The position numbers and the translations under genes are program-made. A stretch of DNA of 34,987 nucleotides from positions 1-34,987 of the forward strand of contig CAYJLM010000002.1 of the NCBI GenBank assembly GCA_964370875.1, read 5' to 3'. The stretch's first letter is position 1. Each line of letters begins with the position of its first letter. The notes beneath the pieces were generated by a model. That model searched no databases. It saw nothing but the letters and a program-made list of their open reading frames with translations, and was not told the origin of the DNA. The stretch is from an uncultured Gammaproteobacteria bacterium (GTDB lineage: Bacteria > Patescibacteriota > Patescibacteriia > JACQRZ01). This document shows positions 2,356-29,012 of this stretch, piece by piece.

Positions 2356-2589
2356 ATGAAAACAAAACAAAAAAAAGACCAGTCATTTGCGGCGGTCTTT
2401 CAGGAACTTGAAGAAATCGTTAAGAAATTTGAAGACGGGAAACTCGATCTCGATGAAAGTTTGAACTATTTTGAACGAGGGCTTGAGCTTGCCGCGGTCT
2501 GCAAGAAATACTTGGCCGGTGTCGAAAATCGCGTTCACGAAATAAAAAAGAAATTTTCAAACGACAATTTGTTTGATGATGAGGAATGA
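2356..2589 (+). CDS. xseB: exodeoxyribonuclease VII small subunit
   Basis: 77 aa. FEDGKLDLDESLNYFERGLEL matches the XseB helical hairpin signature. Sits next to xseA. Confidence 0.85.
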   Translation: MKTKQKKDQSFAAVFQELEEIVKKFEDGKLDLDESLNYFERGLELAAVCKKYLAGVENRVHEIKKKFSNDNLFDDEE

Positions 2590-4661
2590 ATAATATGAAT
2601 CACAATCGGGAAATAGGGGGACCATTTCGCCAGCCGGATCCGGATGGAGATATGGTAGCCGAAGAAAGCGGTAGCCCTGTAAAAGAAAAGGAAATCGCAC
2701 CAGATCCGATTTCCGAGCTGACAAAAGAAATTACGGCACTATCGGAGGAATATGCTGAAGGCGAGTTGAGCGCTGTTGCATACGTCGATCGGGTCGTGCC
2801 GCTCTTTGCGCGTCGAGAGGATCGCATTCGTCATCACCATCCAAAAAACAGTGATGTCGTGAAGAATGTGTTTGCCGCGAAAACACCCCGGTTGTCCGCG
2901 ATTCTCCATGATTTTAATTTCGGAGATATCGTTGATACGCAGCATCCGCTGAACGCAATGAGCGATGATGTGAAAAAAGCGAAATCGGCTGTTACTGCCG
3001 TTGTTGGCTATCGTTTTGCGTACCGACCCTTTTTATATGCGATGACTCTTTGTAAGTCGTCCAGATCATGGGATAAAACCGTGAGAGGAGAACCCACACT
3101 TCAGTATAATAGAGAAGACATGAGAATTCGCGAGGAATTTTGGCACGAAATTGTATCACTGCAGGAAACACTGGGCGTTTCCGATTTTAATAAACGCGCC
3201 GGACTCGCAGCACTTATTCTCCTGACGGATACCGCACAGAGGAAAATGATTCAAGATGTCCACGATCTTCTCGCAAAGCCCGGAAGCGTCATGACTCGCG
3301 CTGAAGAGGATTTTTGGGAGCACTATTTGATTGGAAAACCGCGTAATGAAGGGATCGCATTTTGCCGCAATTATGTTGTGGATGCTGATGAAAAAATGAA
3401 AGGCGCGGCGAACGATATATACGGAGCAATCGGAGATCGAGTTGTTAGGGCATGGAGCGATCTTCTTGCTCAATTCTATACATGTGGTGATTCCCAACAA
3501 GAAAAAGACGCATTTTTATCGGTGTTACGGTATGCGGGCGAGCAACTTTTAGCGGGAAAAATTCAATTGGCGGAACGCGCAATGCAAAAGTATTCCCGAC
3601 GGGAGGTTGCGCATTTTACTCCGCAGATCGTCAAAGAAGAGTCTGAAAAAAAAGCCACCACTGAAATACAAGAAAATACGCAAGCGACAGAAAAAGAAGC
3701 CCTTGAGTTTCTAGAAAAATATAAGGGGCATCTCTTGCTCAATCTTGAATCAATCAAGCGAAAAGATAACTTTGATTTTTTGACTATAACGATCAACGAC
3801 GAAACGCAAGAACTCATTGTGTTTAATGTTCGGATTGGAAAGACTCACGGTGCGGAGAGTCAGATCGGTAGCGGGTTGAGCATTTCTCGGTTTAGTGGTC
3901 GCCGTATGGTACCTGCAAATTTTATGAAGCGGATTCGGTTTGGAAATGAGTATTACCGCGATAGGGTACATGCGCAAACGCAACAACCAGGTGAGGCCAT
4001 CGGCGGGAAGCAACAGATATCGTCGCGACTAGTTCAGGCGAGCGGCGCGCTTTTTGATATTGGCGCTGTTGAAGCGCTTTCCCGCGGGCACATACTGATG
4101 GCGGCGAGAGATTTTTTTAAGAGTGATGCCGCGCGTGCGTTAGTCGGTGATGCTCAGGATGAAATTGTCAGGAATATAGAAACACTTTCGCTTCCTTTCG
4201 AGGGTATAAGTGCTGTTGACAAGCAAATGACAAGAGCAACAAGAAGTGAGCATGAGATGAAGGCGCTTGAGCACATTCTTACCCTCCATCACCATGTTTT
4301 TATTCGGCCGATAAAGAAGAGACATATCGAAAACCTGTCGTCAGATATTATTGTGATACAGATTCTCGGTGTCGTATCAGAAGAGGATTTCAAAAAAAGC
4401 GATCGTAAAAGTCATGCGCAAGCTACCGCCAACGGAATTGAACATCCGGTTCTCCTTACTCGCCGCTATTCGTTTTCTTACAATGGAGAACTTATTCAGA
4501 ACATGGTTGCGGGCACATCGTCATTTGCGCGCTTTGAAGAAGAAATAGAAGCGGAAGGTACGATGGATATGGGGAAATATGACGAGGTAACGACGACGGT
4601 GGTGCGCCGTCTTCGTGACGAATACAAAACGCAACTCAAAGAAAAAGAATCGGAAAAATGA
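2586..4661 (+). CDS. hypothetical protein, 691 aa, no domain recognised
   Basis: Longest ORF in the interval. ATGA start/stop overlap with xseB. Acidic/lysine-rich termini. I could not identify any catalytic motif. Confidence 0.7.
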   Translation: MNNMNHNREIGGPFRQPDPDGDMVAEESGSPVKEKEIAPDPISELTKEITALSEEYAEGELSAVAYVDRVVPLFARREDRIRHHHPKNSDVVKNVFAAKTPRLSAILHDFNFGDIVDTQHPLNAMSDDVKKAKSAVTAVVGYRFAYRPFLYAMTLCKSSRSWDKTVRGEPTLQYNREDMRIREEFWHEIVSLQETLGVSDFNKRAGLAALILLTDTAQRKMIQDVHDLLAKPGSVMTRAEEDFWEHYLIGKPRNEGIAFCRNYVVDADEKMKGAANDIYGAIGDRVVRAWSDLLAQFYTCGDSQQEKDAFLSVLRYAGEQLLAGKIQLAERAMQKYSRREVAHFTPQIVKEESEKKATTEIQENTQATEKEALEFLEKYKGHLLLNLESIKRKDNFDFLTITINDETQELIVFNVRIGKTHGAESQIGSGLSISRFSGRRMVPANFMKRIRFGNEYYRDRVHAQTQQPGEAIGGKQQISSRLVQASGALFDIGAVEALSRGHILMAARDFFKSDAARALVGDAQDEIVRNIETLSLPFEGISAVDKQMTRATRSEHEMKALEHILTLHHHVFIRPIKKRHIENLSSDIIVIQILGVVSEEDFKKSDRKSHAQATANGIEHPVLLTRRYSFSYNGELIQNMVAGTSSFARFEEEIEAEGTMDMGKYDEVTTTVVRRLRDEYKTQLKEKESEK

Positions 4662-5084: not shown

Positions 5085-5642
5085 CTAGCAACCTTTTTCA
5101 AAAAAGTGCAGAACGGTATTGATTTTCTCTTCAATCGTCAAAAGACCCGAATTGAGCGTAATGTGATAGCCGCTCGAATCGCGATAGTCGTAGTCGGATC
5201 CGTATAATTTTTTTGCAAGGTCTAGCTGGCGATTTTCACGTTCGTTGAGGAGCGCCATAATTTCTTCGAGCGATTTTCCGGCAATTTCTTTCTTATCTGT
5301 CTGCATGCCACGCTGTGCGCGGACTTCAAGCGGCGCGGTGATAAACACGCGCAAGACAGGCAATCCATCACCAATAATGCCATGCCACATGTCGCCGATG
5401 ACGTTTCCTTTTGCTAGAACATCATGAGCATATGTATCTGTTTCACGTTCTTCTTCAGGCGTGATTGAGCGAAGGTATTCCTCGAACGTCAGCTCGGCGT
5501 CTGGATATTTTTCTACCCATCGTTGCCTCAGCAGTCCACCGACATAAAAAACAGGCCAGCCAAGCTTTTCAGCGAGTTGGCGCGATGTTGTTGTTTTTCC
5601 CGATCCGGGAAGCCCGGAGAATAAAATGCCGTTAAAACGCAT
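5085..5642 (-). CDS. P-loop nucleotide kinase, cytidylate-kinase-like
   Basis: Walker A GLPGSGKTT eight residues after the internal ATG at 5642. The 46 codons upstream in the ORF track are the palindromic element, not coding sequence. Confidence 0.7.
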   Translation of the reverse strand: MRFNGILFSGLPGSGKTTTSRQLAEKLGWPVFYVGGLLRQRWVEKYPDAELTFEEYLRSITPEEERETDTYAHDVLAKGNVIGDMWHGIIGDGLPVLRVFITAPLEVRAQRGMQTDKKEIAGKSLEEIMALLNERENRQLDLAKKLYGSDYDYRDSSGYHITLNSGLLTIEEKINTVLHFFEKGC

Positions 5643-5673
5643 AAAGTGATTCGATTGTATTGATTTTGTGCCT

Positions 5674-5793
5674 AAGACAAACGTAGTTGAGTGCAATTCT
5701 AGGCGCCGGCGAGGATCGGAGTAAAACGTATACAGTATACGTTGTCGAGAACCGGAGCTGGTAACAACGAAATGCGCCAACTACGTTTGTCTT
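5674..5793 (-). repeat. palindromic structured element, subfamily 1, copy a
   Basis: 15-bp closing stem 5674-5688 / 5779-5793. Central hairpin aacgtata-cag-tatacgtt (5725-5743). The 90-nt core 5689-5778 aligns without gaps to 28908-28997 as reverse complement (73/90 identical). Confidence 0.85.
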
Positions 5794-7487
5794 TATGCTA
5801 GTATTTTTACCATATATGTGTCTTCAAGTCCATACCCAAGCTTCGCATAGTATTCGCGCACCCCTATGCCGGCAATGACCGCCATTTTGGTATATCCTGC
5901 ATCCTTGGCGATTATTTCAGCTCGCTCCATGAGCTTTCTCCCTAATCCCTTGTGTTGCGAGGCGCTGGAATCTTTTTCGTTAATAGTAACGAGCTGTCCG
6001 TACGTGTGTAGTTCTCGGATGAGCGCGGCACCACGGAGTTCTTCGAAATGGTCAACGATGGGATTATCTACGGAGGAGGGGAATCGCAGGCGCAGGAACG
6101 CAAACAAGACAGACTCATCCTCACTTTCGTAGCTCAAAAAATACTCAATTCCCCCCGATGCGCTATATGTCCTCTCCTTGTAATAAGGAGCACCTATATG
6201 CTGAGCATTAGACTCAAGAACGTGCCCAACCTCTCTGCAACGCAAGCACCGACATACGAGCCCATGCTCTTCCATGTATTCCCGCACGGTTTGCCGTAGG
6301 TTTGTCACCTTACTTCCGTGTGAAATTTCTTGCGACGGAAAATCTCGAATGATGCGTGCGATACGCATAGTGGGTGGCACGAGCGCTTTGATCTGGGCGA
6401 GAAGGGGAACAAGCTGTTCGGTGGTGTAGGGCGTATAGCGGCCATCGCGCACCCATTCCTCAAGCTCTGTTGTGGGCGTGACAATACAGGGATAGAGCTT
6501 AATCGTATCGGGCTGGAAATCGCTTTGGGAAAAAATACGCTGCGCATCGCGCACATCACTCTCCGGGGTCGCGCCGGGTAATCCCTGCATAAGATGATAG
6601 TCCACTTTGAGTCCCGCATCCTTCAGAAGGCGGGTCGCATAAATTGAAGCGCCCGTGAGGTGTCCGCGTTTGATGCGTTTTAGAATCGTGTCATCGGGTG
6701 ATTGCACCCCCAGCTCAACCCGCGTGACCCCCAGGTCGCGCAAGCGCTTGATTTCCTGAACGCTGATCCAGTCGGGTCGCGTTTCTATTGTCAGTCCGAT
6801 ACAGCGATGGACGGCTGTTTCATTGATGCTCTGCTGTTCAAAAAGTTTTTCACTCCGCCATTCGTTTTTTTCCGTACCTAAAAAACGACTGAACGGTGAG
6901 TCAGGAGAAGGGGGCGGCATATCGCGCGCGGGACCTCCGACATCGTTCATTGCGCGGAAACACTCAGCGATAAACCACTGCTGGTAGTCGACAGGGTAAG
7001 ACGACCATGTTCCACCCTTGATAATCAGTTCAATCTTGTCGGCAGGATGGCCGTTGCGTTCTAGGATTTCAATGCGCCGGCGTGTTTGGGTATACGGATC
7101 AAACTGTAATGTGAGCGCCCGTGCCGCTGCCGGTTCGGTCGCGATATAGCTTTTGGGCATGCGTTCCTCAGTGGGACAGTAGACGCATTTTCCCGGACAC
7201 GGATGAGGCATGGTTAGAAGCGTAACGATTGCCACACCGGATTTTGACCGGATTGGTTTTACGTGAAGCGCTGTTTCAAGCGCCTTATTTTTTGGAGTGG
7301 CGTTCTTGCTCCGCAGGGCGTTATAGGTGTCGCGGATATCGTTGTGCTGGAAGAGCCCCGTACTTTTTCCCTTTGCCGCCTTTTTTTTGAGTTGGTGCAG
7401 AAGGAGGGGGGTTATATTGTCAGAAAGGGCTAATTCGTGTATAATTGAATCAGGAGCAGGATTGGTGCTTATGCCTGTTTTTTGCAT
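5793..7487 (-). CDS. elp3: Elp3-family radical SAM / GNAT acetyltransferase
   Basis: Cys cluster CPGKCVYCP, radical-SAM barrel, and C-terminal GNAT motif QHKGLGRKLMERAE. ATG 7487 (MQKTGIS...) preferred, because the 42 upstream codons are element sequence. Confidence 0.8.
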   Translation of the reverse strand: MQKTGISTNPAPDSIIHELALSDNITPLLLHQLKKKAAKGKSTGLFQHNDIRDTYNALRSKNATPKNKALETALHVKPIRSKSGVAIVTLLTMPHPCPGKCVYCPTEERMPKSYIATEPAAARALTLQFDPYTQTRRRIEILERNGHPADKIELIIKGGTWSSYPVDYQQWFIAECFRAMNDVGGPARDMPPPSPDSPFSRFLGTEKNEWRSEKLFEQQSINETAVHRCIGLTIETRPDWISVQEIKRLRDLGVTRVELGVQSPDDTILKRIKRGHLTGASIYATRLLKDAGLKVDYHLMQGLPGATPESDVRDAQRIFSQSDFQPDTIKLYPCIVTPTTELEEWVRDGRYTPYTTEQLVPLLAQIKALVPPTMRIARIIRDFPSQEISHGSKVTNLRQTVREYMEEHGLVCRCLRCREVGHVLESNAQHIGAPYYKERTYSASGGIEYFLSYESEDESVLFAFLRLRFPSSVDNPIVDHFEELRGAALIRELHTYGQLVTINEKDSSASQHKGLGRKLMERAEIIAKDAGYTKMAVIAGIGVREYYAKLGYGLEDTYMVKILA

Positions 7488-7496
7488 AGTTTTTTG

Positions 7497-7630
7497 ATTT
7501 ACGAAACTTGTTATGTTCGGACATTTCTTCCTCGGGGCCGGATATTTTTCTGCTGAAAAATTCCTTAAACTCAGACCGTCGTCCTCCGTATGCCCCTGTG
7601 GAGAAACGTCCAAACATAAGTTTCGTAATT
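7497..7630 (+). repeat. palindromic structured element, subfamily 2, copy a
   Basis: Closing stem 7497-7509 / 7618-7630 plus 7513-7517 / 7613-7617. P2 tttcttc (7524-7530) / ggagaaa (7600-7606). The 68-nt core 7535-7602 is 64/68 identical to 18193-18260. Confidence 0.9.
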
Positions 7631-7643
7631 CCTAAGCAGATCC

Positions 7644-8513
7644 ATGAATCCTGAAACAGCAAAACACATACTGCAATTGACTCAGGATGGCTATGTGCGA
7701 ATAGCCAGATATTTTGATAAAACTCGCAATACAATCTGGGAGGATTTTAGCATTTTCAAGGCCTCTGTCAAAGATGGATCTCGTGTTTTGGATGTTGGAT
7801 GCGGGAATGGGCGACTGTATGCGGCACTGAAAGATAAGAATGTGATGTATGTCGGAGTCGATCAGAACCCGTACTTAATAGAGCAGGCGCAAGAGCGTTA
7901 TCCGCAAGCGAGGTTCATTACCGGAGACATTCTTTCCCTCGACACCATTTCCGGTATTGCCGGCGAGACATTCGATGTTATTTTTTCTGTCGCAGTTCTG
8001 TGCCATATCCCTTCAACGGAATTGCGTCAGCGTGTTCTAGTAGCCATGCGTTCATTGCTGGTTCGTGATGGTCTACTCATGATGCTGAATTGGAATCTGT
8101 GGCGTATTGCCTTCAAGCATAAAAGCATTTGGAAAAATCTTCATCAGCGGTTGACACTGAGTCCGCTGACATGGAAAGAGATGTATGCAGCCTCGGAGAG
8201 AGATATGGGGTTTCGCGATGTCATGACGTGGTGGGGCACGCATATCAATGGCACGCCGCTGTATTATCGTGCATTTTCTGTCGGAGAATTGCGTGCATTG
8301 TGCCGAGATGTCGGGTTTAGCGACATCTCGTGTTTTTATACGATGAAAGGTAAAAGGGCACACTGGTGGAACGGAAGAAATCTTGCGCTTATTACGCGCA
8401 ACACACTTGTATCTGTTCCTGTAAAGGAGCGAAAAAAGTCCGCAGTACCCTTGAATCAAATGTCTTACGCATCTATTCCAAAAATTGAGATTGGTGAAAA
8501 TAGCTCATCATGA
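7644..8513 (+). CDS. class I SAM-dependent methyltransferase
   Basis: Motif I VLDVGCGNGRL, followed by the usual acidic loop and motif II spacing. Confidence 0.8.
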   Translation: MNPETAKHILQLTQDGYVRIARYFDKTRNTIWEDFSIFKASVKDGSRVLDVGCGNGRLYAALKDKNVMYVGVDQNPYLIEQAQERYPQARFITGDILSLDTISGIAGETFDVIFSVAVLCHIPSTELRQRVLVAMRSLLVRDGLLMMLNWNLWRIAFKHKSIWKNLHQRLTLSPLTWKEMYAASERDMGFRDVMTWWGTHINGTPLYYRAFSVGELRALCRDVGFSDISCFYTMKGKRAHWWNGRNLALITRNTLVSVPVKERKKSAVPLNQMSYASIPKIEIGENSSS

Positions 8514-9397: not shown

Positions 9398-11347
9398 ATG
9401 CATAGATTCCATCTCAAATCACACCTTCAGCCGGCAGGCGATCAGCCGCAAGCCATCCAGAAACTCACGGATGGCTTTGCTCGTTTTCCACAACAAACAC
9501 TTCTCGGCATTACCGGATCGGGAAAAACATACACTGCCGCAAAGGTGATTCAGGACATTCAGGTGCCGACACTCGTTTTGACGCACAACAAAACATTAGC
9601 CGCACAGCTATACAACGAGTTTAAGAGTTTTTTTCCGGATAATAGGGTCTGCTATTTTGTTTCATACTACGACTACTACCAGCCGGAAAGCTATTTGCCA
9701 AAATCAGATACCTATATAGAAAAGGAGACGCAGATCAATCAGAAGATCGATCAGCTTCGACTCGAGGCGATGTCCGCACTCGCTACGCGCAAAGACACGA
9801 TTGTGGTTGCCTCTGTCTCCTGTATCTATGCTTTGGGCAACCCCGCCAATTTCATGGCAGGCATGACGACCGTAAAGACGGGACAAGAGACATCGCGGAA
9901 GGCATTTTTGGAAAACCTTATAGACATGCTCTATCAGCGCAATGATGTGGAGCTTGTGGCCGGTCGGTTCCGCGTGCGTGGTGATGTTGTCGATGTGATT
10001 CAGGGGTTTGGCGGTGATATTATCCGATTTGAATTTTTTGGCAGACAGATAGAAAAAATCTCGCGTCTCCATCCAATATCTCTGGAAGTTGAAGAAGTGT
10101 TATCAGATGTTATTCTCTTTCCTGCGCGGCCCTTTGTGACACCCGAGGAACAGCGATTGCGTGCCCTCGATACAATCCGTGAGGAGCTGGCAGAACGACT
10201 CAAGGAACTCCCGATGTTAGAGGCCCATCGTCTTGAACAGCGCACGAATTATGACCTTGAGATGATTGAGCAGATTGGAACATGTAAGTCAATCGAAAAC
10301 TACTCGCGCCACTTCGATGGGCGCGCGCCGGGAGAGCCGCCGTTTTGTCTCATCGATTATTTCGCTCAGAGCCCGTTTTCAAAAGAATTTCTGATGATGA
10401 TTGACGAGAGTCATGTGTCGGTACCGCAAGTGCGGGGTATGTATCATGGCGATCGCACGCGCAAAAAGAATCTCATTGATTTTGGATTTCGGCTTCCATC
10501 AGCGTATGATAATAGGCCGCTGAAGTTTGCGGAGTTTGAAAAATATCTTACCCATGCACTGTACGTGAGCGCAACACCCGGCGAGTACGAGCGTGAACAC
10601 AGCAGTCAGATTGTTGAGCAAGTAGTGCGACCGACAGGGCTTCTCGATCCCGAGATTACGATTAAGCCAATCAAGCATTGTATTGAGGACTTGAAAAATG
10701 AAATTAATGCATGTGTCAAAGACGGGGATCGCGTGCTGGTGACCACGCTCACCAAGCGGTCCGCCGAAGAGCTTGCCGAGTATCTTACGTTGCATGATAT
10801 CAAGGCGCGTTACTTGCACAGCGAAATTGATACGATAGAGAGGACAAAGCTACTCAAAGATTTGCGCCGGGGGGTATTTGACGTCATGGTGGGAATTAAC
10901 CTGTTGCGCGAAGGGCTTGATTTGCCCGAGGTGGCGCTCGTGGCGATTCTCGATGCCGACAAGGAAGGATTTTTGCGCAATGCAACAAGCTTGATTCAGA
11001 CCATCGGTCGCGCCGCGCGCAATCTCCGAGGTCGTGTTATTTTATACGCCGACAAACAAACGGATTCAATACAGCACGCGGTGGATGAGACGAAGCGAAG
11101 GCGCAAGATTCAGACCGCATTCAACAAAAAACACGGCATCACTCCAAAGAGCATTGAAAAAGCGATCATGGAGGAGCTGGTTCCCGGAGAAATAGCCGCA
11201 GTCATGAAGGGTATCCCAACACATGATCAGATAATCGTGTTGCAGGAGGAGCTCCAGGCGGCAGTGGAACGGCTTGATTTTGAGAAAGCAATCGTTATTC
11301 GCGATACGCTGGCAAAGCTCGAGAAGAATGCGCGGAAGGGAAGGTAG
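9398..11347 (+). CDS. uvrB: excinuclease ABC subunit B
   Basis: Walker A GITGSGKT, DESH box (MIDESHVS), helicase motifs, and a C-terminal UVR domain (LEKAIVIRD-like FEKAIVIRDTLAKL). Confidence 0.95.
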   Translation: MHRFHLKSHLQPAGDQPQAIQKLTDGFARFPQQTLLGITGSGKTYTAAKVIQDIQVPTLVLTHNKTLAAQLYNEFKSFFPDNRVCYFVSYYDYYQPESYLPKSDTYIEKETQINQKIDQLRLEAMSALATRKDTIVVASVSCIYALGNPANFMAGMTTVKTGQETSRKAFLENLIDMLYQRNDVELVAGRFRVRGDVVDVIQGFGGDIIRFEFFGRQIEKISRLHPISLEVEEVLSDVILFPARPFVTPEEQRLRALDTIREELAERLKELPMLEAHRLEQRTNYDLEMIEQIGTCKSIENYSRHFDGRAPGEPPFCLIDYFAQSPFSKEFLMMIDESHVSVPQVRGMYHGDRTRKKNLIDFGFRLPSAYDNRPLKFAEFEKYLTHALYVSATPGEYEREHSSQIVEQVVRPTGLLDPEITIKPIKHCIEDLKNEINACVKDGDRVLVTTLTKRSAEELAEYLTLHDIKARYLHSEIDTIERTKLLKDLRRGVFDVMVGINLLREGLDLPEVALVAILDADKEGFLRNATSLIQTIGRAARNLRGRVILYADKQTDSIQHAVDETKRRRKIQTAFNKKHGITPKSIEKAIMEELVPGEIAAVMKGIPTHDQIIVLQEELQAAVERLDFEKAIVIRDTLAKLEKNARKGR

Positions 11348-11421: not shown

Positions 11422-11497
11422 GAACAGGTAGAGACTCCTTTTTTGCAACAGGGCACACTTCGTTCAAAGGTTGCCAAAAAGGAATCTCCACCTGTTC
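11422..11497 (+). repeat. 76-nt near-perfect hairpin (H1)
   Basis: Stems 11422-11429 / 11490-11497, 11431-11443 / 11476-11488 (one C/A mismatch) and 11445-11449 / 11470-11474. 20-nt loop containing gcacacttcgttcaaag. Confidence 0.8.
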
Positions 11498-17412: not shown

Positions 17413-18519
17413 ATGAATTTCTGGAAAAAGCTGAAAAAACCAATACGGTGCCTCGCGCCGATGGCAGATGTCACCGACGCGGCTTTTCGCCGTATTATTG
17501 CGAAATATGGGAAACCCGACGTCATGTGGACGGAATTTGTGTCTGTGGATGGTCTCTGTTCTATCGGACGCGAAAAGCTGCTGCCCGATCTTTGGTACAC
17601 ACAAGCCGAGCGACCTATTGTCGCGCAGATTTTCGGATGCAATCCTGAGAATTTCTATAAAGCCGCCCTCCTCATCAAAGAACTGGGATTTGACGGAATC
17701 GACATCAATATGGGGTGTCCGATGAAAAATATCGAACACCAGCACGCGGGAGCGACACTCATGAAGGATCCGCAGCTCGCCGTAAAGATTGTTCAGGAAA
17801 CAAAACGCGGCGCCGGCAAACTTCCCGTTTCAGTCAAAACGCGTCTTGGGTATAACAAGGTTATGATCGAAGAATGGATTTTGCCGCTGCTTGATGCGGA
17901 ACCTGCTGCATTGACGATCCATGCTCGTACGCGGAAAGAGATGTCAAAGGTTCCGGCGCACTGGGATATTCTCGGCGATGTTGTTGAAAAAATACACGCG
18001 CAGTATACGACCAGTAGAAACCGACCGATTATCATTGGCAACGGTGACGTAAAAGACATGGATGATGCGTATGATAAAGTAAAACAGTACGGCGTTGACG
18101 GAGTGATGCTGGGGCGGGCGATATTTGGGAACCCATGGTTGTTTGCGCATCCACCAATTGCGAAGCATTCCCCCTCGGGTACTTGTTCCTCAGGGCCGGA
18201 TATTTTTCTGCTGAAAAATTCCTTAAACTCAGGCCGTCGCCTTCCGTATGCCCCTGCGGACAAGAACCCGAGGGAGAGCTTCGCAATTCTCGGTACCCAT
18301 GTTCCGTCGCAAGAAGAAAAAATGTCTGTTCTGCTCGAACATACAAGTGTTTTTGACCAGCTCTTTGCCGGAATCAAAAACTTTGATATTATGAAAAAAC
18401 ATTATAAGGCATATGTATCCGGTTTTGACGGCGCCAAAGAGCTGCGCGTACAGCTTATGGCGTGCAAGACCGCGCAAGAAATTTCCAAAATTATTCATAA
18501 AGAATTTCCGTCACTATGA
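17413..18519 (+). CDS. dus: tRNA-dihydrouridine synthase carrying an in-frame element insertion of about 45 codons
   Basis: LAPMADVTDAAFR, DINMGCP, VSVKTRLG and GNGDV motifs. C-terminal helical domain KKHYKAYVSGFDGAKELRVQL. An extra segment follows GNPWLF. Confidence 0.9.
   Translation: MNFWKKLKKPIRCLAPMADVTDAAFRRIIAKYGKPDVMWTEFVSVDGLCSIGREKLLPDLWYTQAERPIVAQIFGCNPENFYKAALLIKELGFDGIDINMGCPMKNIEHQHAGATLMKDPQLAVKIVQETKRGAGKLPVSVKTRLGYNKVMIEEWILPLLDAEPAALTIHARTRKEMSKVPAHWDILGDVVEKIHAQYTTSRNRPIIIGNGDVKDMDDAYDKVKQYGVDGVMLGRAIFGNPWLFAHPPIAKHSPSGTCSSGPDIFLLKNSLNSGRRLPYAPADKNPRESFAILGTHVPSQEEKMSVLLEHTSVFDQLFAGIKNFDIMKKHYKAYVSGFDGAKELRVQLMACKTAQEISKIIHKEFPSL
18156..18288 (+). repeat. palindromic structured element, subfamily 2, copy b, inside dus
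   Basis: Arms 18156-18166 / 18278-18288 (11 bp) and 18172-18180 / 18266-18274 (9 bp). P2 cttgttc (18182-18188) / ggacaag (18258-18264). Core 18193-18260 is 64/68 identical to 7535-7602. Confidence 0.9.
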
Positions 18520-26195: not shown

Positions 26196-26318
26196 CGGGA
26201 TACCGGGGCACACTGATGATTCTTATCACGCTGGTCGGTCCCGCACTCCACGGGGTTATGGCTTGGTCAAAACGCCGAACATAATTGTCCCTGTCCGGAT
26301 ACGATTGTCTTGACCGAG

Positions 26319-27212
26319 ATGCTCAGTCCTGATAATCTTAAAAGAGCTATGGTAGAGAATATAACTGAAAAATTAAAGGAATACTTTGAGAAACGGGACG
26401 ATGTCGCCCTTGCTTTTTTGTTTGGTTCACAGAGTAGGGGATTAACGCGTCCATCGTCTGATTGGGACATTGCGGTCTATCTCGCGCCTCGCCAGTGGGG
26501 CGAGCTTGAAACAAAACATACCTATGCGGGTGAATCGGAGATTCGCGCGGAGCTTGGACGCATGGTGTCAACAGATCTTGATCTTGTTGTCTTGAACCGC
26601 GCGCGGCCATCTCTTGTTTTTTCAATCATGAATTCAGGCATTCCTCTCGCCATCAAAGACATGCGCCTCTACCTTACGCTCCTGTCGCGCACCCATTACG
26701 AGGCGGTCGATTATTGGAGTTTTGTGAAGGAGTACCGTGAGCTCTATGACCGCGCGCAATCATTGACGCCGGAAGCGCGCGCGATGCTTATTGAGCACCT
26801 CACCTTTCTTGAGAACGAACTTGCTGATGCGGGAAAGTTTTCAACACTCACCTACAAAGAGTATCAAGAGAGCAGGGATATGCGTCGGAATGTCGAGCGT
26901 TGGATTGAAAATTGCGTCATGAGCGCGTTGGATATCACAAAGATAGTACTCTCTTCAGAGAAGCGCGATGTGCCGCAGACATACAGAGATATGATCCACG
27001 ATTTCGGGACACTTTTTGTGAGTCAAGAGTTTGCGGAAGCGTTTTCAGAATACGCATCACTTCGCAATATTCTCGCACATGAATACCTTGACGTGCGGTG
27101 GGAGCGGATACGCCATTTTCTTGAAACCGCGCCGTTGCTTTATGGAAGGTTTGTAAACGCTGTGAAGACATATCTCTCGAGTCAGGAGGTAAAAAAATCC
27201 CCTTATGTTTGA
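26319..27212 (+). CDS. fused minimal nucleotidyltransferase (MNT) - HEPN/DUF86 protein
   Basis: N-terminal FGSQSRGLTRPSSDWDIAV (GS-X10-DxD NTase motif) and C-terminal RNILAHEY (HEPN Rx4-6H) within one uninterrupted ORF. Confidence 0.75.
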   Translation: MLSPDNLKRAMVENITEKLKEYFEKRDDVALAFLFGSQSRGLTRPSSDWDIAVYLAPRQWGELETKHTYAGESEIRAELGRMVSTDLDLVVLNRARPSLVFSIMNSGIPLAIKDMRLYLTLLSRTHYEAVDYWSFVKEYRELYDRAQSLTPEARAMLIEHLTFLENELADAGKFSTLTYKEYQESRDMRRNVERWIENCVMSALDITKIVLSSEKRDVPQTYRDMIHDFGTLFVSQEFAEAFSEYASLRNILAHEYLDVRWERIRHFLETAPLLYGRFVNAVKTYLSSQEVKKSPYV

Positions 27213-28892: not shown

Positions 28893-29012
28893 ATGACTTC
28901 CGCGTTTGGCACATTTCTTCGTTGCCAACTCCGGTACTCGACAACGTACATTGTGTACGCCTTACTCCGTTCCTCATTGGCGCCTAGAACTGCGCTCAAA
29001 CGCAAAAGTCAT
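28893..29012 (+). repeat. palindromic structured element, subfamily 1, copy b
   Basis: 15-bp closing stem 28893-28907 / 28998-29012 (two C/A mismatches on plus, equal to G:U on minus). Central hairpin cgtaca-ttg-tgtacg (28945-28959). Core 28908-28997 is 73/90 identical to the reverse complement of 5689-5778. Confidence 0.85.

Follow-up and report, generated by a model that had tools for sequence, protein, structure and literature searches.

A palindromic element of about 145-150 nt, two copies of which lie in the window (the whole 34,987-nt stretch of DNA analyzed here), is, with a probability that we put at roughly 60%, a mobile repeat of Candidatus Uhrbacteria comparable to the RPE, ERIC and bcr1 elements, whose propagation depends on a folded single strand. 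The sequence family is previously undescribed, but the kind of selfish DNA is known, and the element is not a new RNA gene. It combines an asymmetric three-way-junction core that hardly changes with a closing interrupted stem of ~40 bp that drifts in sequence and yet remains paired. It is inserted DNA, present or absent between close relatives, which enters very short gaps between genes, in both orientations, and, within genes, survives only in frame in permissive interdomain linkers (Table 1).

Table 1. Positions of the element, its core features and its host genes in the window, and contexts of copies on metagenome contigs
Feature	Position	Strand	Remarks
Copy A, full element	7486..7638	+	Covariance-model match 164 bits, E 2.5e-34; fold z -6.85; site empty in six relatives
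Copy B, full element	18145..18296	+	Covariance-model match 152 bits; in-frame ORF translation
Invariant block CCGGATATTTTTCTGCTGAAAAATTCCTTAAACTC, 35 nt, 8/8 copies	7538..7572	+	Alignment columns C48-C82
Core hairpin 1, GGA-ATTTTTC / TGCT loop / GAAAAAT-TCC	7540..7564	+	Helix 3, 10 pairs, identical in 8/8 copies
Core hairpin 2, GAC-CGTC-GTC	7574..7583	+	Covaries; pair 92/103 is GC in 3, CG in 3 and AU in 1
Elp3-like radical-SAM/GNAT gene	5793..7487	-	Pfam Radical_SAM, Radical_SAM_C, Acetyltransf_1
Class I SAM-dependent methyltransferase gene	7644..8513	+	Pfam
Promoter-like TTGTCA-17-TATAAT	7417..7445	+	In Elp3 coding region, towards methyltransferase; consensus scan, 11/12
Promoter-like TTGACA-16-TAAAAT + TG	7744..7771	-	In methyltransferase coding region, towards Elp3; consensus scan, 11/12
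tRNA-dihydrouridine synthase (Dus) gene, host of copy B	17413..18519	+	Pfam PF01207, E 1.4e-59
L028 copy			Between NADH-dehydrogenase subunit gene and next gene; same strand as host genes
L033 copy			Just upstream of ProRS; opposite strand to host genes
L034 copy			Just upstream of NUDIX gene; opposite strand to host genes
L022 copy			Adjoins divergent gene start

Identification of further copies

Copies A and B had been noticed earlier as a common core within self-complementary arms. The core pair (7535-7602 and 18193-18260) is reconfirmed as identical at 64 of 68 positions, with a longest exact stretch of 40 nt; the bounds first given for the repeats, 7497-7630 and 18156-18288, pick out the right loci and are too short, the covariance-model matches being wider (7486-7638 and 18145-18296). 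The window is gene-dense, and its nearest protein relatives are labelled Candidatus Uhrbacteria or Patescibacteria by their sources. A peptide search with the four open frames against 5.8 billion protein clusters recovered only the Dus protein of the window and P0002, a GT4 glycosyltransferase from the Ca. Uhrbacteria MAG GCA_030688725.1, in which the element lies on the opposite strand and in frame (...GAYAGRRPEFKEFFSRKISGPEEQ...) and accounts for ~42 additional residues between the two Rossmann domains. A search of metagenome contigs with a 24-mer of the core yielded five distinct copies, namely L022, L023 (= L035), L028, L033 (= L032) and L034. The distinct copies, of 143-149 nt, therefore total eight (A, B, copy C in the glycosyltransferase and the five on metagenome contigs). 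They come from three or more independent sources of data, which are the ENA contig of the window, the NCBI MAG GCA_030688725.1, and the Ga0209515 and OBEQ01 metagenome contigs. The collection of copies and the covariance model that the earlier note had proposed differed in their yield, the former bringing the six further copies and the latter, together with nhmmer, no additional copy of this family (family 1) over 129 kb of related Uhrbacteria loci. That the element could not be assigned to a known RNA family, as noted earlier, is borne out, with 0 Rfam matches at the gathering score over the whole window and 0 at E<=10 over positions 5600-7700. Together these searches establish that the family is real and present in independent assemblies, and it appears to be small or narrowly distributed.

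Several other matches were discarded. BLAST against plasmids and phages and two further patterns in IMG/VR gave no match, and a gapped pattern of the core gave two matches in IMG/VR that were judged to be chance. The same type of pattern had 17 matches in GTDB representative genomes, 0 of them with the true 18-nt spacing, and all are hence ascribed to chance. The 24-mer TCTGCTGAAAAATTCCTTAAACTC also occurs in eight human-gut contigs (L024-L027, L029-L031 and L036) within an unrelated coding region, the translation of which reads ...PEFKEFFSRHSIHVGSTGNLG... and includes a peptide, PEFKEFFSR, that is also encoded by the minus strand of the element; given that no similarity extends beyond 25 nt, the match was judged a coincidence.

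The copies display no fixed orientation with respect to the transcription of their hosts, being sense in A and L023 (relative to the methyltransferase), B and L028, and antisense in C, L033 and L034. Nor do the host genes, which include Dus, the GT4 glycosyltransferase, an NADH dehydrogenase subunit, ProRS and a NUDIX gene, share a functional theme. Frames +0 and -1, which are those used, are stop-free in the coding copies, and the intergenic copies have stops in most frames, a pattern of survivorship to be expected when insertions endure only where they can be read through in tolerant linkers.

Structure and covariation

Both window copies form a single long interrupted hairpin, as had been proposed, at -48.2 (A) and -65.6 (B) kcal/mol; the fold z-scores of the ~133-nt stretches are -6.85 and -7.99, with 0/200 dinucleotide shuffles folding equally well. 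The compensatory changes tttcttc/ggagaaa versus cttgttc/ggacaag, with the T:G retained, and the inner helices previously named are all present. The outer arms, by contrast, had been called unrelated, and alignment shows them to be diverged homologues with paired substitutions (tACGAAaC...gTTTCGTa in A versus tGCGAAgC...gCTTCGCa in B), the A-type arm being the norm of the family to judge from the six further copies. The ends TTGAAT...ATTCAA and the subterminal ACGAAAC...GTTTCGT are semi-conserved, and the termini are TG...CA-like.

The RNAalifold consensus of the eight-copy alignment contains 51 pairs and is made up of an outer stem of ~17 bp, an inner stem of ~22 bp in which the T:G occurs in 7/8 copies, an invariant hairpin of 10 bp, a single-stranded linker of 12 nt (TCCTTAAACTC...) and a small second hairpin. 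The covariation first seen between two copies exceeds controls in the larger set: double-sided changes are found in 24/51 pairs, and 93.4% of the cells are paired versus 83.7% in shuffles (0/500 as high) and only 39-54% after a shift of the partners by 1-3 columns. The covariation score is 0.335, versus 0.147 for shuffles (0/500), and likewise supports a consensus fold. The second hairpin occurs as GAC/GTC, GGC/GCC or GGGC/GCCC, and in L034 as a longer GCCCG-AGG-CGGGT.

As had been observed for the two window copies, the interior is more conserved than the arms, with between-copy identities of 79-100% in the core and 49-89% in the arms (75-89% among the arms of A, L022, L023, L028 and L033). 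Conservation is lower at the termini than in the interior, and the termini carry paired substitutions at columns 16-19/147-150 and 22-23/143-144. All eight copies were retrieved through the exact 24-mer or its peptide, so the invariance of the core is partly an ascertainment effect: within 7538-7572 the 24 nt at 7549-7572 were preset by the search pattern, and the unbiased invariance amounts to 11 nt. Arm sequence thus drifts with pairing kept, and in the core the constraint acts on the sequence itself.

The minus strand folds better than the plus strand, at -59.0 (A) and -74.1 (B) kcal/mol, and is more stable by 5.6-17 kcal/mol in 8/8 copies. Among plus-strand mismatches, A.C is seen in 12 columns versus G.T in 4, one of the latter being the conserved T:G (binomial p about 0.08). 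This excess and the stability of the minus strand are suggestive, and not decisive, of one preferred functional strand, possibly that of a dedicated RNA.

Templated correction of quasi-palindromes during replication could yield paired changes in the absence of selection. Such correction, or a need for transposition competence via a folded intermediate, would give the same signal as selection on an RNA, and covariation alone therefore cannot establish RNA function. The original proposal of selection on a folded RNA or ssDNA is only partly supported: the covariation and the conserved interior are upheld, and a stand-alone RNA gene distinct from mobile repeats finds no support in view of the dispersal of the copies, their occurrence in both orientations and the in-frame insertions.

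Within the invariant block there is a perfect inverted repeat (7+7), ATTTTTC-TGCT-GAAAAAT, and copy A lies between divergent genes, as might a double-stranded DNA site for a dimeric protein (an operator, a nucleoid protein site or a segregation site) centered on this repeat. However, the block is asymmetric beyond the small palindrome, and a site of this kind would leave the ~40 bp of covarying stem, the second hairpin and the coding-sequence copies unexplained; we regard it as scarcely credible. Readings of the element as a retron, riboswitch, ribozyme or intron were also considered and set aside.

Insertion polymorphism

The gap between the Elp3-like and methyltransferase genes is filled (156 nt) only in the window and L023, and is empty (4-23 nt) in six genomes, namely L038, L039, L040, L042, L043 and L044; L040 derives from GCA_030688725.1, the MAG with the glycosyltransferase copy. 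Neighbor-joining trees of both flanking proteins recover one clade of the window with L040, L042 and L043 and another of L023 with L038 and L044, from which it follows that each filled genome has empty nearest relatives. This distribution over two clades implies that the element entered the same spot twice independently, that it was precisely lost several times, or that it was inherited from long ago. The last of these, if accompanied by constraint at the A/L023 site, would favor a host function. Recent recombination of the window lineage with an L023-like genome was rejected, as identity does not rise locally beside copy A. A treatment of A and L023 as orthologs under purifying selection was likewise dropped, given that closer relatives of both are empty and that A is equally similar to L028.

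Comparison of empty and filled sites reveals no target-site duplication: the empty site reads CAT atttttg/cgtagac ATG, versus CAT agttttttg[ATTTACG...CGTAATTCCTAA]gcagatcc ATG when filled. None of the eight copies is flanked by direct repeats, and the flanks of the copies other than A extend the palindrome by just a few copy-specific pairs. This bears on whether the element is an ordinary MITE, moved by cut-and-paste by a DDE transposase that reads terminal inverted repeats, with the hairpin a by-product. A classical MITE would share its small size, non-coding nature, dispersal and polymorphism, and the semi-conserved ends and TG...CA-like termini could also fit. What speaks against it is the lack of duplication, in all copies and in the filled/empty comparison; the variation of the termini by paired substitutions, which a protein that reads both ends as double-stranded DNA does not require; and the failure to find a cognate or parent IS in the DNA examined (the window and the other loci). 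We consider a MITE of this type very unlikely.

Host loci in the window

Copy A occupies nearly all of the 156-nt gap between the divergent Elp3-like and methyltransferase genes. The Elp3-like start codon is 9 nt from the arm of copy A (7497) and is overlapped by 2 nt of the model match, and the methyltransferase starts 5 nt past the end of the match (7638) and 13 nt past the end of the arm (7630). If the two promoter-like sites, each of which lies in the coding region of the opposite gene, are real, copy A would be part of both 5' leaders, in one orientation each. The Elp3-like and methyltransferase genes of relatives also contain near-consensus promoter-like hexamers inside each other's coding regions, and the TATAAT within Elp3 is retained even in the distant L039. 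Both genes also show unusual conservation of third-codon positions across their first ~40 codons.

Copy B lies inside the Dus ORF, in frame and free of stops, which the earlier note had missed. Its translation (...FAHPPIAKHSPSGTCSSGPDIFLLKNSLNSGRRLPYAPADKNPRESFAILGTH...) adds ~44 residues to the linker that joins the TIM barrel of Dus to its helical domain, and alignment with the Thermotoga structure 1vhn from the PDB places 50 query residues against 11 between the domains. The segment is absent from many Uhrbacteria Dus proteins, e.g. P0007. The insert is predicted to be disordered: in an AlphaFold model of moderate quality (mean pLDDT 62) residues 219-279 have pLDDT<50 and lack secondary structure.

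These contexts need to be weighed against the alternative that the element is primarily a structured RNA of use to the host, either a small RNA or a leader or intercistronic hairpin that governs the stability, RNase III processing or translation of the mRNA. Host selection would then have maintained the copies at their several loci, and mobility would be incidental. The strong covariation would fit such an RNA, as would the second hairpin, which alters in sequence and length and stays a hairpin, and the folding asymmetry that favors one strand in every copy. So would the location of copy A between two promoter-like sites, and hence in both leaders, and the tendency of copies to abut start or stop codons inside operons. 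A further point in its favor is that copy A and the L023 copy are 82% identical (91% in the core), versus only 35-37% at the 4-fold sites of the flanking genes of the window and L023. However, the non-orthologous copies A and L028 are at least as similar, at 84%, and the A-L023 similarity is thus no proof of constraint at the locus. The mixed orientation relative to transcription, the presence of two copies within coding sequence, the disparate host genes and the absence of the element from the same site in the nearest relatives all argue in the same direction, and we judge a host-functional RNA to be unlikely.

Other palindromic families and additional observations

A second family (family 2) has four copies, at 5674-5793 and 28895-29010 of the window, 8073-8192 of L033 and ~3712-3832 of L028. 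Its core of ~88 nt is about 80% identical (…GGCRCATTTC…CTCCGGTnCTCGACAnCGTA…CTCCGnTCCTC…GCGCCTAGAAyTG…), and its outer arms of 14-16 bp are unrelated between copies and perfectly or nearly perfectly complementary. All four lie directly after stop codons (Elp3, atpE and others) and share one orientation with respect to their host genes. L023, in which the genes overlap, has no copy at the site after Elp3, and the flanks are not the source of the arms. Family 4 is represented in L039 by an intergenic copy between uvrA and uvrC (8277-8396) and, 2.4 kb downstream of it, a copy in frame in the Dus linker (10737-10820), which have a common 39-nt core and different arms. Yet another palindrome is found in frame in the Dus linker of both L037 (~775-860) and L038 (10746-10818). 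The possibility that the Dus-linker palindromes of L037, L038 and L039 are decayed versions of copy B was rejected, since local alignments were no better than shuffles, except for L037 versus L038, and they are treated as separate families. The Dus linker is thus either a repeated target of insertion or a site where insertions are repeatedly tolerated, with different palindromes in different lineages, and the plan of conserved core and free arms is a property of several element families in the clade. It is this shared plan that might prove to go beyond one more MITE.

The latter families suggest a model in which the core alone is the mobile or convertible module and the arms are locus-specific, either as pre-existing hairpins that were invaded or as sequences made anew, e.g. 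by fold-back synthesis. Both family 2 (window, L033 and L028) and the two L039 copies of family 4 have near-identical cores with arms unrelated between copies, and in three copies the arms are perfectly complementary (16/16 in each of two family-2 copies and 22/22 in the intergenic copy of family 4). Against this, the 75-89% identity among the five family-1 arms compared above indicates that these travel with the core. In addition, the empty sites of copy A (14-nt gaps) and of the family-2 copy at 5674 display neither a prior palindrome nor any arm-like sequence, and no template for the arm sequences was found elsewhere in the window. We hold a core-only module to be extremely improbable for family 1.

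Other features of the window and its relatives were recorded in passing. The uvrB-uvrA intergenic region of the window (11422-11497) has a hairpin with 28-bp arms (89% complementary) and a 20-nt loop, which could be a terminator or another repeat family; comparable long hairpins lie in intergenic gaps of relatives (L038 4903-4963 and 9889-9987). In a single ORF at 26310-27212, a Polbeta/NTP_transf_2 nucleotidyltransferase domain is joined to a HepT-like RNase domain, as a fused MNT-HepT toxin-antitoxin-like protein. Contigs from two other assemblies, L046 and L047, begin at exactly base 1 of the window, which suggests that assembly breaks repeatedly just upstream, possibly at a repeat. The window also has an ORF of 691 aa (2586-4661) without a Pfam match, which in a near-identical contig from another sample (L045 2635-4646) is called as two genes of 377 and 293 aa; this could reflect a frameshift or a strain difference.

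Proposed mode of propagation and its implications

Given the absence of target duplication and the inverted pattern of conservation, with a fixed center and ends that differ through paired changes, we prefer a mechanism in which the element is propagated as a folded single strand, of either ssDNA or RNA. A mobilizing enzyme would recognize the invariant core in trans, the stem would need only to pair, and compensatory changes would build up along lineages of active copies. After insertion the element would be transcribed together with its host genes, would form a very stable hairpin and may secondarily affect mRNA stability or processing, as do ERIC, Correia and bcr1. Neither a transposase, an HUH/RAYT enzyme, a recombinase nor a reverse transcriptase was found in the 35-kb window or in the flanks of the other loci.

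A more speculative extension, which we consider doubtful, is that the several unrelated Uhrbacteria families of ~100-150 nt with one plan belong to an undescribed structure-dependent mobilization system, in which folded ssDNA or RNA is recognized via the core and the arms are perhaps partly re-made at each insertion. If so, essential genes such as Dus would time and again acquire new peptide linkers through this system.

In the literature searched, no repeat elements of comparable kind were found for CPR bacteria. The genomes of these organisms are tiny and gene-dense, and the element enters gaps of 4-23 nt and, in frame, a tRNA-modification enzyme and a glycosyltransferase, so that the length of a linker in CPR proteins can jump by ~45 residues. 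Elements of this kind break assemblies, inflate ORFs and can pass for RNA genes. The invariant core with its free paired arms also offers a handle for locating the mobilizing enzyme via phylogenetic profiling.

Comparison with known systems

REPIN/RAYT systems, IS200/IS605 elements and integron attC sites function in the form of folded single strands and do not duplicate their target. The Uhrbacteria element could be likened to them in mechanism only, through the lack of duplication, the conservation of structure over sequence and the strand asymmetry. An actual REPIN was rejected, in that the pattern is reversed (REPINs conserve the arms, whereas here the center is conserved and the arms are free) and no RAYT occurs in the DNA examined. 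The attC R''/R' consensus is RYYYAAC/GTTRRRY. An integron attC site was rejected as well, since ACGAAAC/GTTTCGT departs from this consensus and the copies lie between or inside housekeeping genes with no integrase gene nearby.

Among small repeats, the ERIC and Correia MITEs are imperfect palindromes of 100-160 bp that are co-transcribed with their neighbors, can alter mRNA stability or processing and are sometimes intragenic (PMC3184786). They have conserved terminal inverted repeats and TA duplications, whereas in the present element the termini are semi-conserved, no duplication is seen and it is the core that is conserved. The bcr1 repeats of the Bacillus cereus group, of ~155 bp, are dispersed, not conserved in position between strains and transcribed, with compensatory changes that maintain a long double-stranded fold (PMC3184786). 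Size, dispersal and compensatory changes are shared by the Uhrbacteria element, but bcr1 has 5-bp flanking direct repeats and the Uhrbacteria element shows no duplication.

The RPE are palindromic repeats of 100-150 bp in a reduced genome, located in intergenic regions or in frame and without stops at structurally permissive places in unrelated genes, and no transposase is known for them (PMC10969869, PMC3184786). Both these in-frame insertions and the compensatory changes of ERIC and bcr1 are already documented (PMC3184786, PMC10969869). Like RPE, the Uhrbacteria element is palindromic and sits in frame and without stops in Dus and GT4, in interdomain linkers. It differs in its host (Patescibacteria versus Alphaproteobacteria), in having two in-frame copies as opposed to dozens and in an interior that is more conserved than the ends. 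By this analogy we place it as probably working like RPE and not as an RPE member. It would thereby constitute a second, independent case of Rickettsia-type selfish DNA within the protein-coding genes of reduced genomes.
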